DNA of 64,000 nt from Escherichia phage vB_EcoM-ZQ1. The position numbers and the translations under genes are program-made. The DNA is taken from sequence record MW650886.1; one strand, 5' to 3'. This document shows, piece by piece, positions 4,723 to 44,094 of the stretch (its first letter is position 1; each line of letters opens with the position of its first letter). The notes beneath the pieces were generated by a model. It saw only the letters and a program-made list of their open reading frames with translations, was not told the DNA's origin and did no database searches.

Positions 4723-5472
4723 TTATTTGGACAGATAGAAGTTTGGAACTTCAGGGAAATGCTCTGGTAGATATTCCCCTAGAACATCCTGTTTCACCTT
4801 CCCTTCGATATCTTCGCGGATACGACGAATCACGTCTTCCTGTTGTTCTGCTGCCATCACTTCTTCCATGGCTGAGTACAAGTTTTCTAGAATGACACCT
4901 ACGTAGTTGTGGATGGCACGACAGGAGTTCTGATCATACTCCATATCCGGATGAATCGCCAGGTCGACCTGATCACGCCCTACCAGCAGATGTCCAGACA
5001 CCAGATTTATCGGGTATTTGAATACTTCACTAGATTTGACAGCAACTCCGTCGGCTTGCTTCAGCAGAAATTCGGTTTCAGAGAAGCGTTCAAGCAGTTC
5101 CGATGGGAATACCATATCGAGATTCTGACGCTTGCGACCAAAGAAGTATAGACAATGCGCCAGTTTCAGGCATGCATCGGTGGCCATCTTCATGTGTGCT
5201 TTAGCGTGTTCATAACCAGCGATCACATCACGGACATAATCGTACAGGTCGGAATGACCAAAACGGATGTCCTCTTCGAAGCGGATTGCTGTTTCACTGT
5301 CCGGTTTCACACCCAGAACATCGAAAATATTTTGTTCGCGAACGAATCTGCCGTTTCGATCGAAACCCAGAACACAACCTACTTCGAATCCACTCTTTTC
5401 AAAATTTGGGAGTTTCATATCAAGGCGAGCTGGGGTAAACTCTAACCCGAACATACGATAAATTTGTGACAT
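4723..5472 (-). CDS. hypothetical protein
   Basis: 249 aa; ATG with GAGG SD 8 nt upstream. Confidence 0.5.
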   Translation of the reverse strand: MSQIYRMFGLEFTPARLDMKLPNFEKSGFEVGCVLGFDRNGRFVREQNIFDVLGVKPDSETAIRFEEDIRFGHSDLYDYVRDVIAGYEHAKAHMKMATDACLKLAHCLYFFGRKRQNLDMVFPSELLERFSETEFLLKQADGVAVKSSEVFKYPINLVSGHLLVGRDQVDLAIHPDMEYDQNSCRAIHNYVGVILENLYSAMEEVMAAEQQEDVIRRIREDIEGKVKQDVLGEYLPEHFPEVPNFYLSK

Positions 5473-5534
5473 GTTATAGCCTCATCATTTAGGATTACCT
5501 GTTCACGAATTATCCCTCGGAACGGGTTATAGAA

Positions 5535-6239
5535 CTATTTCTTCTTATGCATACGACGTGCATCTTTCCACACAGACATCTGGCTCTGTTTCTGGAAGCG
5601 GGCAGTGCGCATGAAGAGAACGATCTCCCAGTACTGTGGCTCAATCTCGTAAAGCTGTGAACGGAACTGATCGGCGCGGTACAGCTTCACACAGTGATTG
5701 TACAGCGGATGGTTGGCGAAGCGCTTCAGGGCTTCCCAGGTGAGCTTCAGACGCGTCTTTGAGCGGTATGCCCGTTCGTTACGCAACTTGATCAGATCCT
5801 CAAACACCAACAGCCTGAGCTTCGGTGGCAGGTAGTGCATGTTGAGCCCCCAGAGGTATGTCACACCCTTCTCTCCAAAGGTGATACCATCACCCTTGAC
5901 AAAGTTGAAGAAGAACACCAGAGGGTACATATCCCAGTAGGGTAGTTCATTCTTCGTCAGAGCATCATATTTGAAATAGAACATGCGCCCGACTATATAC
6001 CGCACACCTTGTACCGGACGTTTGTGATCAGCAAACGCCTGTTTCATATGGTTGGGACTCAGGTTGGCGTCCTTAGACACACGCTCCATGAACCACACAT
6101 GCGAACGGCGGATGTTACGCTTCGCCTCTGGACCGAAGTGTTGACGGTACTTGCGGATGTAACGCTTGACCAGCTCGGGGGCGTCCATCTCGGCCGGAAA
6201 CAGCAACGGATCTTCTTCGCCAGCTGCATTCTTTGCCAT
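5535..6239 (-). CDS. hypothetical protein
   Basis: 234 aa; ATG with AGGAG SD. Confidence 0.5.
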   Translation of the reverse strand: MAKNAAGEEDPLLFPAEMDAPELVKRYIRKYRQHFGPEAKRNIRRSHVWFMERVSKDANLSPNHMKQAFADHKRPVQGVRYIVGRMFYFKYDALTKNELPYWDMYPLVFFFNFVKGDGITFGEKGVTYLWGLNMHYLPPKLRLLVFEDLIKLRNERAYRSKTRLKLTWEALKRFANHPLYNHCVKLYRADQFRSQLYEIEPQYWEIVLFMRTARFQKQSQMSVWKDARRMHKKK

Positions 6240-42022: not shown

Positions 42023-42393
42023 AACGTACCCCCGACAGAGATCAAGAACTCTTCTTGCATGGTCTTGACCGGGTGGTGGTTGCGGGTTTCGAACATGAAG
42101 CCCCAGCCACCGTCGGCGACGTTACCAAAGGTCTTGACACCAAAGGACTTCGTCCCGTTGGAGCAGGAATAGATGTCCAGGACGTATGGGCTACCCTGAT
42201 TGTCGATCCCACGATTCACGTCGTCTGATACACAGCGCTCAATCATCTTCCCGTTCTTATACAGAACGAGGTCTTGACCATACGCCTTGAAAGCATAAAC
42301 ACCGTTGGTAGACACTCCGGTGATGACAGGAGGGGCGGAAACAGCAGCAAAGGAAGCGCCTAGCAGGGCAACAGCGAGGATTAACTTTTTCAT
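42019..42393 (-). CDS. secreted protein (signal peptide)
   Basis: Start MKKLILAVALLGASFAAVSA preceded by the conserved leader motif. Confidence 0.45.
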   Translation of the reverse strand: MKKLILAVALLGASFAAVSAPPVITGVSTNGVYAFKAYGQDLVLYKNGKMIERCVSDDVNRGIDNQGSPYVLDIYSCSNGTKSFGVKTFGNVADGGWGFMFETRNHHPVKTMQEEFLISVGGTL

Positions 42394-42445
42394 GATATAG
42401 TCTCTTGGTTTCAAATGGGCGGGGTATGATTACCCCGCCGTGGGT

Positions 42446-42952
42446 TTATAGGGTAACAAGTGATACGGTAAAAACCATCGTCCCGTCTGTTGCCATTTTT
42501 CTTGAAACTGGTATGACGCGAGGCTGGCAGAATATCCATTCTTTCTCCATGGACGCCAAGTCCAGCATATCCATTTCTGATTCATCGCCTTTGTTCACAA
42601 ATTTTTCTAGAGAACCATAGACATTAAGCCCCTCCGGGAGTCTGTTTCGATGTTTGTAACAAATGCGGGCAACAGCTTTGGTTCCGTACGATTTAGAAAA
42701 TTTTTTGGCCACATGCTTCAGTTCACTGAAGCTAAGACAAGAATCCCATGTCTGGAACATGTCGCCTCGTTCAAACATCATCTCTAAACGCGCAACGTCC
42801 TCTTTAGGCAGCCCGCGATAAAGTGTGGTCGTCTGTGGTTCGCGCAATTCTTGCACCAGATCACGGACGGCAGGGGAAACAGTACCGGGGCGCATGATGT
42901 GGGACTTATCATGGACGAGGTAAAATAAATCTTGAATTTGTTGATCAGTCAT
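42446..42952 (-). CDS. hypothetical protein
   Basis: Start MTDQQIQ with AGGAACTATATCATG context. Confidence 0.45.
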   Translation of the reverse strand: MTDQQIQDLFYLVHDKSHIMRPGTVSPAVRDLVQELREPQTTTLYRGLPKEDVARLEMMFERGDMFQTWDSCLSFSELKHVAKKFSKSYGTKAVARICYKHRNRLPEGLNVYGSLEKFVNKGDESEMDMLDLASMEKEWIFCQPRVIPVSRKMATDGTMVFTVSLVTL

Positions 42953-43011
42953 GATATAGTTCCTGCATTTCAAATAGACGGGGTAATCATACCCCGCCCA
43001 AAGTTATAGAA

Positions 43012-43251: not shown

Positions 43252-43302
43252 GATATAATCTTACCTTTCAACCCGGTGAACCCATCGTTCGCCAGTTATT
43301 GA

Positions 43303-43331
43303 ATAATAGGACATTCCTTAGAGGAAGTAAA
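43303..43331 (-). promoter_or_regulatory. early promoter (-35 TTTACT, 17 nt, -10 TATTAT) after a repeat hairpin
   Basis: GGGGTTTACTTCCTCTAAGGAATGTCCTATTAT. Confidence 0.45.
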
Positions 43332-43367
43332 CCCCTAAAAGTAAAAATCCCCAACGTTTGTTGGGGA
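43324..43367. repeat. 44-bp direct repeat, copy 1 (contains an 11-bp-stem hairpin)
   Basis: GAAGTAAACCCCTAAAAGTAAAAATCCCCAACGTTTGTTGGGGA, identical to 43683..43726. Confidence 0.7.
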
Positions 43368-43384
43368 TTTAATAAAAGTTATGC

Positions 43385-43609: not shown

Positions 43610-43668
43610 AATATATACCTTCTTTCAATGAACGGGAACGCCCCGCTCTATGAATTCAATAATACGCA

Positions 43669-43697
43669 TTTACATTATAGAAGTAAACCCCTAAAAG
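43669..43697 (-). promoter_or_regulatory. early promoter (-35 TTTACT, 17 nt, -10 TATTAT) after a repeat hairpin
   Basis: GGGGTTTACTTCTATAATGTAAATGCGTATTAT. Confidence 0.45.
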
Positions 43698-43726
43698 TAA
43701 AAATCCCCAACGTTTGTTGGGGACTT
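43683..43726. repeat. 44-bp direct repeat, copy 2
   Basis: Identical 44-mer 359 bp downstream of copy 1; each copy precedes a small gene. Confidence 0.7.
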
Positions 43727-43729
43727 CTG

Positions 43730-44053
43730 TTATTTGCGCAGGGCAACCACGAGTTCAGCGAGTTCACCCATGGTCGGGTCATCGCCTTTACTACCCAGCC
43801 AACCGTCGTCGATTTCGACCTGAAACTCTTCTTCTAGTTCCATTACGATTTCGATGGCATCCAGTTCGTCACCACCGAGGTCTTTCTTGGTACGGAGGCC
43901 AGCCAGCTTGTCCAGGGCGTCCTCGTTCTGAGATGCCACGTCGTCCAGCAATTTGCGCTTGTCATCGTCACGCCACAGATCCATATTCAGATTGTCAGTG
44001 GCGTACTGAGCCAGATGACGCATGACTTCAACATATGTTGGTTTACTGCTCAT
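43730..44053 (-). CDS. acyl carrier protein-like protein with Ser-to-Glu at the phosphopantetheine site
   Basis: DLGGDELDAIEIVMELEEEFQVEIDD aligns with E. coli ACP [26 protein letters not shown]; the DSL serine is Glu here. Confidence 0.55.
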   Translation of the reverse strand: MSSKPTYVEVMRHLAQYATDNLNMDLWRDDDKRKLLDDVASQNEDALDKLAGLRTKKDLGGDELDAIEIVMELEEEFQVEIDDGWLGSKGDDPTMGELAELVVALRK

Positions 44054-44060
44054 GTTATTA

Positions 44061-44086
44061 CTCCAAAGAAAGGCGGGTTGCCCCGC
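44061..44086 (-). terminator. hairpin after the vWA gene
   Basis: GGCGGG-TTGC-CCCGCC followed by TTTCTTTGG. Confidence 0.45.
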
Positions 44087-44094
44087 CCGTTGGA

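Follow-up and report, generated by a model that had tools for sequence, protein, structure and literature searches.

A serine-less acyl carrier protein-like protein of Escherichia phage vB_EcoM-ZQ1 and its relatives: a predicted pseudo-carrier that may act by binding other proteins

Introduction

What can a protein with the fold of an acyl carrier protein (ACP) do once the serine that receives the phosphopantetheine arm has been replaced? This question is raised by a small minus-strand gene of Escherichia phage vB_EcoM-ZQ1 (sequence record MW650886.1), which was analysed within a window of 64,000 nucleotides (nt), i.e. the whole stretch of DNA under study. The window comes from the genome of a myophage of the Ackermannviridae. 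Judged from its sequence, the product of this gene is a pseudo-carrier that is unable to carry fatty acids, because the Ser hydroxyl is absent from the attachment site, and it most likely acts by binding other proteins.

The gene was found by tblastn in 276 phage records, including 270 with at least 80% coverage, and the carrier records were nearly all Ackermannviridae of Salmonella, Klebsiella, Escherichia, Dickeya, Shigella, Serratia and Enterobacter. Among the ~270 phage records with the gene are many candidates for therapy or biocontrol directed at Salmonella, E. coli O157, Klebsiella and Dickeya. Many GenBank/RefSeq records label the gene 'acyl carrier protein', sometimes 'acpP' or 'acpA', a name that implies a role in lipid or auxiliary metabolism that is impossible for a serine-less protein. 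Literature searches on ACP in phages or Ackermannviridae turned up annotation tables only, with no mention of the missing serine or of a function. A preliminary description of the locus, made from the DNA letters alone, had recognised an ACP-like protein with Glu in place of the attachment serine and had assigned it to an early-gene block with its own promoter, next to a gene encoding a vWA protein. These claims were examined together with the possible roles of the protein.

An acyl carrier protein fold without the attachment serine

The homology to ACP was supported by sequence, profile and structure-based searches. Residues 57-83 were identical to E. coli AcpP at 17 of 27 positions (63%; E = 5e-9, BLASTP with compositional adjustment); the AcpP query sequence agrees with the PDB matches. 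A phmmer search against PDB returned 99 matches at E ≤ 1, the best 60 of which were all ACP chains, and the best match among those listed was the Bacillus subtilis ACP (5.5e-6). Residues 58-101 matched the Pfam PP-binding family (PF00550) with 26.0 bits against a gathering cut-off of 20.8, and thus passed the threshold for the carrier-protein superfamily, while PF14573 scored 25.2 bits, under its cut-off of 32. The protein was also matched by PHROG 4154, 'acyl carrier protein', at 2.4e-57. All of the NCBIfam ACP models that matched (11/11) stayed under their own cut-offs, including the equivalog TIGR00517 (34.6 vs 70.45 bits).

The AlphaFold2 (AF2) model is a four-helix bundle with the topology of ACP (helix I, long loop, helix II, helix III, helix IV), and nearly all of the matches listed in the fold search were carrier proteins. 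The ACP homology given in the preliminary description was thus recovered in both sequence and predicted structure. The likeness had been placed in the C-terminal half: it was confirmed there, although its restriction to that half was not, since residues 7-21 form a helix I that can be aligned with its ACP counterpart. A compositional artefact was ruled out by the compositionally adjusted BLASTP E value, the Pfam match above threshold and the nearly exclusive carrier-protein fold matches. Loop I contains an insert of ~25-30 residues, with AF2 helices at residues 24-27, 30-40 and 44-51. This insert is only 13-26% identical in relatives whose residues 53-107 keep 42-62% identity.

In both the PDB and the AcpP alignments, Glu63 stands opposite the serine of ACP (Ser36 of AcpP), as had been described, and phosphopantetheinylation at this site is excluded as it requires the Ser hydroxyl. 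No AcpS- or Sfp-type phosphopantetheinyl transferase (PPTase) was found by tblastn in any Ackermannviridae record, with AcpS and Sfp as queries, and no lipid, polyketide synthase (PKS) or nonribosomal peptide synthetase (NRPS) domains were found in the nine neighbouring proteins scanned, one of which resembles the RNA polymerase ADP-ribosylases of phrog_832. A host PPTase is still available, yet the ACP-like protein offers it no Ser to modify. The annotation 'acyl carrier protein' reflects ancestry rather than function.

Conservation of the acidic residue

The exchange is a property of the whole family. Its members were grouped into 41 protein clusters at 55-97% identity, 40 of which cover the Ser site, the remaining one being a truncated protein. 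The position is occupied by Glu in 38 and by Asp in two of these 40 clusters, and by Ser in none. Full-length relatives at 30-50% identity, retrieved by a profile search of 1.84 billion representative proteins (P0042-P0047 and P0049), all possess D-[E/D]-L, and Glu or Asp was present at the Ser position in 17/17 diverged serine-less relatives. The open reading frame (ORF) that directly follows the vWA gene in Erwinia phage Bue1 reads AMDELD at the Ser site, and a 90-residue gene product of Serratia phage 3M reads FDELD. Conservation of the acidic residue among homologs, which had been a point to verify, extends to distant relatives. For a short serine-less clade (P0057), the search added only two proteins, one with Glu and one that is an ordinary Ser-type ACP. 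Serine-less ACP-like proteins were also present in unrelated phage-like contigs, without a vWA neighbour.

Several observations were made along the way. The Bue1 ORF (L022, vB_EamM-Bue1, MG973030; ~5310-5612) is uncalled in the source record, where it lies inside an apparent 'intergenic' gap of 440 nt. Many of the ACP-like proteins of non-phage origin that the profile search retrieved with Glu or Asp at the Ser site (P0098, P0101, P0116, P0123, P0150, P0162, P0177, P0074, P0076 and P0059) have hydrophobic signal- or lipobox-like N-termini (e.g. LASC, LAGC, LTGC, LVGC), as judged by eye and hydropathy score only. Some of them carry two or three tandem ACP-like domains, and exported, non-carrier ACP-fold proteins are a possible class. 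The nearest Ser-containing relatives (P0058, P0065 and P0061; contexts L020, L018/L019 and L017) have a DDPT/DDxT motif before helix IV and are orphan ACPs in prophage-like or mobile-element contexts, outside fatty-acid or polyketide clusters; their neighbourhoods include RusA/AAA_24, ParB/methyltransferases and a type I restriction-modification system. The record 'Acinetobacter phage MD-2021a' (L010, CAKLQH020000007.1) holds an ordinary bacterial rpmF-fabD-fabG-acpP cluster, and its acpP, a tblastn match, was rejected as a phage gene since it lies in bacterial fab-cluster DNA, i.e. chromosome or contamination.

Residues of the docking helices

Residues D62, L64, E68, M71, E74 and D83 were invariant in 21 aligned sequences including AcpP, while D65 and I81 were nearly invariant in the 17 serine-less sequences. 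In the same order, these eight residues correspond to D35, L37, E41, M44, E47, D56, D38 and I54 of AcpP. The acidic recognition helix is thus retained, in agreement with the preliminary description. Other classes of carrier protein with this fold are not known to conserve the surface acidic docking residues. Mutagenesis in E. coli identified M44, V43, L42, F50, I54 and T64 as required for the binding of ACP partners (PMC3340395). The window protein has the same residue at five of the six sites, and Ile at the sixth, L42, which is L, I, V, F, M or T in the 17 serine-less relatives. The invariant residues are the universal ACP docking set and not a family-specific one.

Gene, neighbours and transcription

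The ORF was supported as described (Table 1). A GGAG Shine-Dalgarno (SD) sequence lies 7 nt 5' of the ATG, the homologs align starting at Met1, and the ratio of nonsynonymous to synonymous substitution rates (dN/dS) was 0.13 against the ortholog of phage LIMEstone1, which indicates purifying selection. A single mass-spectrometry retrieval was also reported for the Sajous1 ortholog, gp186 (PMC10892097). A wrong frame or start was ruled out on these grounds, and an opposite-strand ORF (43714-44025) is unsupported given the dN/dS in the minus-strand frame. Escherichia phage LHE287 and Salmonella phage SW16-7 share 96% identity with the window over the 501 bases around the gene, a query of which at least 80% was spanned by 82 phage records. 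The protein of Escherichia phage PC3 is 100% identical to the one in the window.

Table 1. Positions of the ACP-like gene, its parts and the neighbouring features in the window.
Feature	Position	Strand	Remarks
ACP-like pseudo-carrier gene (predicted)	43730..44053	minus	107 aa, ATG start, pI 4.3, net charge -14
Residues 58-83 (DLGGDELDAIEIVMELEEEFQVEIDD): DLGGDELD motif, helix II, start of helix III	43805..43882	minus	Corresponds to AcpP residues 31-56, acidic recognition helix
Codon GAA (Glu63), site of the phosphopantetheine-attachment Ser36 of AcpP	43865..43867	minus	PDB and AcpP alignments
Fast-evolving helical insert in loop I, residues ~22-52	43898..43990	minus	Gap in canonical ACPs in the alignment
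Spacer of 41 nt, vWA stop to ACP-like start	44054..44094	minus	GC hairpin 44088-44071, T-rich tail, SD GGAG 44064-44061
vWA protein, 734 aa	44095..46299	minus	Pfam VWA, 33.5 bits
Cassette of terminator hairpin and sigma70-like promoter (TTTACT-16-TATAAT)	43654..43726	minus	3' of the ACP-like stop codon
Second cassette copy	43298-43370	minus	356 nt further on, 84% identity

The vWA gene does adjoin the ACP-like gene, upstream of it across the spacer. Its product has an intact metal ion-dependent adhesion site (MIDAS) motif (D25-x-S27-x-S29, T98 and D128), the residues of which were invariant or at least 90% conserved among 63 homologs. In the AF2 model (pLDDT 87.7), the N-terminal ~400 residues, comprising the vWA domain and a beta-sandwich, matched ArnB, 4fx5 and ITIH1 in a Foldseek search of PDB. 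For the C-terminal ~330 residues, Foldseek gave no PDB match. A phmmer search of PDB with the vWA protein yielded nothing useful. A Ku-like architecture was considered and rejected as no Ku entry was among the matches listed, and PADLOC gave no match for the vWA protein. Six vWA peptides were recovered from LIMEstone1 virions (PMC3296691). Homologs of the vWA protein were found in 504 phage records, including Ackermannviridae, Straboviridae (49% identity), Bacillus phage AR9 and Rhizobium phages.

The hairpin in the spacer between the two genes is kept, with differing stem sequences and a spacing of 41-43 nt, in LIMEstone1 and three diverged contigs (L001, L002, L003 and L008), and the LIMEstone1 record annotates a terminator at this place. 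Promoter scans detected neither a sigma70-like nor a T4-late (TATAAATA) promoter upstream of the ACP-like gene, which is probably read through from the vWA transcript. The promoter-hairpin cassette that had been attributed to the gene lies 3' of its stop codon, precedes the next gene (43609-43385) and serves that gene, not the ACP-like one; the LIMEstone1 record annotates a terminator and an early promoter at the equivalent place. The assignment to an early-gene block gained no support: the scans revealed no promoter for the gene, and the vWA neighbour was recovered from LIMEstone1 virions.

The 73-nt cassette occurs twice, each time before a small minus-strand gene, and its hairpin (GTCCCCAACAAACGTTGGGGA) and T-run overlap the TTTACT-16/17-TATAAT promoter; the cassette works as a combined stop/restart module. 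A different repeat of 50 nt (78% identity; 42390-42439 and 42949-42998) places a GC hairpin (GGCGGGGTA...CCCCGCC) directly 5' of two adjacent minus-strand gene starts. Modules of a similar kind, with a hairpin and an SD, stand before the ACP-like gene (44088-44061) and before an ORF (46836-46816). A minus-strand ORF of 175 residues (42446-42973), located three genes further downstream, matched phrog_832, 'RNA polymerase ADP-ribosylase', at 1.3e-15, and Pfam Mod_ADP_RT is present in its syntenic counterpart from a diverged contig; the predicted product of the ORF looks like an enzyme of the host-takeover type.

Possible functions of the serine-less protein

A protein with a complete predicted ACP fold that cannot be phosphopantetheinylated would work only through protein-protein contacts. 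It is plausible, if somewhat short of probable, that this pseudo-carrier docks on a host protein that binds ACP. An ACP mimic that would bind or titrate ACP-dependent host enzymes, as suggested in the preliminary description, is likewise plausible. A host protein with an ACP-docking site is the likeliest partner because the conserved residues are those of the universal ACP docking set, and because the phage is without ACP-binding enzymes of its own. The acidic and hydrophobic residues of helices II and III would dock on a basic patch of the host partner, so that the phage protein would occupy the ACP-docking site as a non-productive or hijacking ACP surrogate, and the fast-evolving insert in loop I may add specificity. 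The carboxylate of Glu/Asp63 could supply the negative charge of the Ser-phosphodiester and/or cap helix II. The roles considered for it were those of a phosphodiester charge mimic, a metal ligand or a mere helix II cap, and the repeated change of Ser to Glu or Asp in independent ACP lineages raises the same question more broadly.

Candidates for a low-copy partner that would accept ACP lacking its prosthetic arm are AcpS, MukB and PlsB. Apo-ACP reportedly inhibits PlsB, with growth inhibition, in work by Keating, Carey and Cronan in 1995. Apo- and holo-AcpP stimulate the MukB ATPase equally, and host AcpP is present at ~100 µM (PMC8602292). Bulk titration of host enzymes is implausible at such a concentration of AcpP, and a specific low-copy target is more credible than bulk titration of the enzymes of fatty-acid synthesis.

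Several points weigh against docking on a host ACP-binding protein. Competition is made difficult by the same abundance of host AcpP. The best sequence matches were the ACPs of Bacillus and Plasmodium and not enterobacterial AcpP, which gives no sign of host-specific mimicry, and the 'DLG' portion of the motif decays in distant members. The preference for Glu or Asp may be purely structural, as a helix N-cap or through the helix dipole, and these residues also occupy the Ser site in the apparently exported bacterial ACP-like proteins. A structural preference may also be indicated by a 177-residue protein of Vibrio phage 277E43-1 (L009, 3980-4513), whose ACP-like N-terminal domain, fused to an unrelated C-terminal region of ~90 residues, has Asn at the Ser site (GFDNLD).

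A bolder and rather doubtful version of the proposal is that an arm-less ACP surrogate of Ackermannviridae and some other phages locks onto an ACP-dependent host protein by way of its Glu/Asp carboxylate and its intact recognition helix, for example as a dead-end substrate mimic at the Mg2+/coenzyme A site of AcpS, or on MukB or PlsB, in an undescribed takeover of the ACP hub. The D-[E/D]-L-D proteins, including the exported lipoprotein-like ones, would then form an unrecognised class of non-carriers. If a host ACP partner is indeed bound, the ACP interaction hub would for the first time be shown to be the target of a viral protein, and a natural non-acylatable ACP with a highly conserved docking helix would be a tool to dissect the functions of ACP that are independent of the prosthetic group.

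The alternatives differ in what they take the acidic, serine-less surface to be for. That the protein is still a true carrier, loaded at another residue or by other chemistry, would make the label 'acyl carrier protein' correct and would agree with the Pfam PP-binding match and with the name given in many GenBank/RefSeq records, but it has next to no likelihood: the attachment Ser is missing in every member examined, no alternative Ser lies beside helix II, and the sole invariant hydroxyl, T94, corresponds to the canonical, unmodified T64. Moreover, the tblastn searches with AcpS and Sfp detected no PPTase in Ackermannviridae records, the score is far under the NCBIfam equivalog cut-off, and acyl- or peptidyl-processing families were without a match in the nine scanned neighbouring proteins. 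Small size and acidity are typical of the DNA mimics of phages. With its pI of 4.3 and net charge of -14, the protein could by the same token imitate nucleic acid in the manner of Ocr/ArdA and so block defence or repair proteins of the host that bind DNA, and T7 gp5.9 is reported to be a DNA mimic that inhibits MukBEF (PMC7617805). Such a role is nevertheless very improbable, as a charge of this size is usual for an ACP (that of E. coli AcpP is -15), no DNA-mimic protein was among the fold matches listed, and the only PADLOC match of the ACP-like protein lacked significance by a wide margin (E = 0.023). A structural or regulatory role in another phage-encoded complex, as one of its subunits and without any link to host ACP partners, is also unlikely; it would leave unexplained why the universal ACP docking residues, and not a lineage-specific surface, are invariant, and no LYR-type partner was found, although no search aimed at one was made.

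Binding to the neighbouring vWA protein is a weaker rival to docking on a host ACP-binding protein, and we judge it improbable. In that case the ACP-like protein would be a partner or ligand of the virion-associated vWA protein and serve it as subunit, chaperone or regulator, and the Glu/Asp63 carboxylate would complete the MIDAS metal coordination as in integrin/midasin ligands. The MIDAS ligands of vWA and integrin I domains donate an acidic residue, and position 63 is only E or D in the 40 clusters covering the site, while the DxSxS, T and D residues of the MIDAS are conserved across the 63 vWA homologs. The order vWA-hairpin-ACP-like, with its spacer of 41-43 nt, is kept in the window, LIMEstone1 and the three diverged contigs, the ACP-like ORF directly follows the vWA gene in Bue1, and it lies ~900 nt downstream of vWA in 3M. 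However, adjacency inside one colinear phage family is weak evidence, and a conserved terminator-like hairpin separates the two genes. The distributions also differ: vWA homologs occur in 504 phage records against ~270 with the ACP-like gene, a 2.5-kb neighbourhood of vWA contained no ACP-like gene in Slopekvirus, Pseudotevenvirus, AR9 and Rhizobium phages, and the serine-less ACP-like proteins of other phage contigs lack a vWA neighbour. When both genes were compared between identical pairs of genomes, dN was 0.44-0.62 for the ACP-like gene and 0.14-0.20 for vWA, a 2-4x difference, and the LIMEstone1 virion list includes vWA with its six peptides whereas the ACP-like protein is not listed.

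Comparison with known carrier proteins and serine-less relatives

Compared with AcpP (PF00550), the phage protein has Glu or Asp in place of the Ser36 attachment site and contains, besides the ~25-30-residue insert in loop I, an insertion of five residues ahead of helix IV that bears a GDDPT motif. The phage gene also differs in its surroundings, with no fab, PKS or NRPS context among the nine neighbours scanned and no PPTase detected in Ackermannviridae.

The loss of the Ser under maintained purifying selection is shared with the mACP of Plasmodium falciparum and other serine-less ACPs of apicomplexans (PMC8547962). In Plasmodium mACP, which is the nearest precedent in terms of function, Ser is replaced by Phe; the protein binds Isd11, and Phe113 itself contributes to the interface (PMC8547962). 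The apicomplexan replacements are Phe, Cys or Gly, whereas the phage replacement is acidic, and the partner of mACP is a eukaryotic LYR protein of Fe-S biogenesis (PMC8547962). That study found no serine-less ACP outside Apicomplexa and Vitrella (PMC8547962), and the phage family appears to have an origin separate from the apicomplexan one.

Other ACP-fold proteins serve as accessory subunits, such as T. brucei mt-SAF32, Euglena NDUEG11, Tetrahymena ATPTT11 and the ACP-like subunit of cytochrome oxidase; these are eukaryotic, organellar and likened to the phage protein by fold only. The model for a subunit of another phage complex is given by the ACP-fold proteins that mitochondrial complex I, ATP synthase and mitoribosome assembly intermediates contain as accessory subunits. 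Docking on a host protein can be compared with apo-AcpP and its partners MukB and PlsB, cases in which an ACP can still bind and modulate host proteins without its prosthetic group. Apo-AcpP is, however, a state of the host's own ACP, whereas the phage paralog lacks the arm permanently and has an additional insert.
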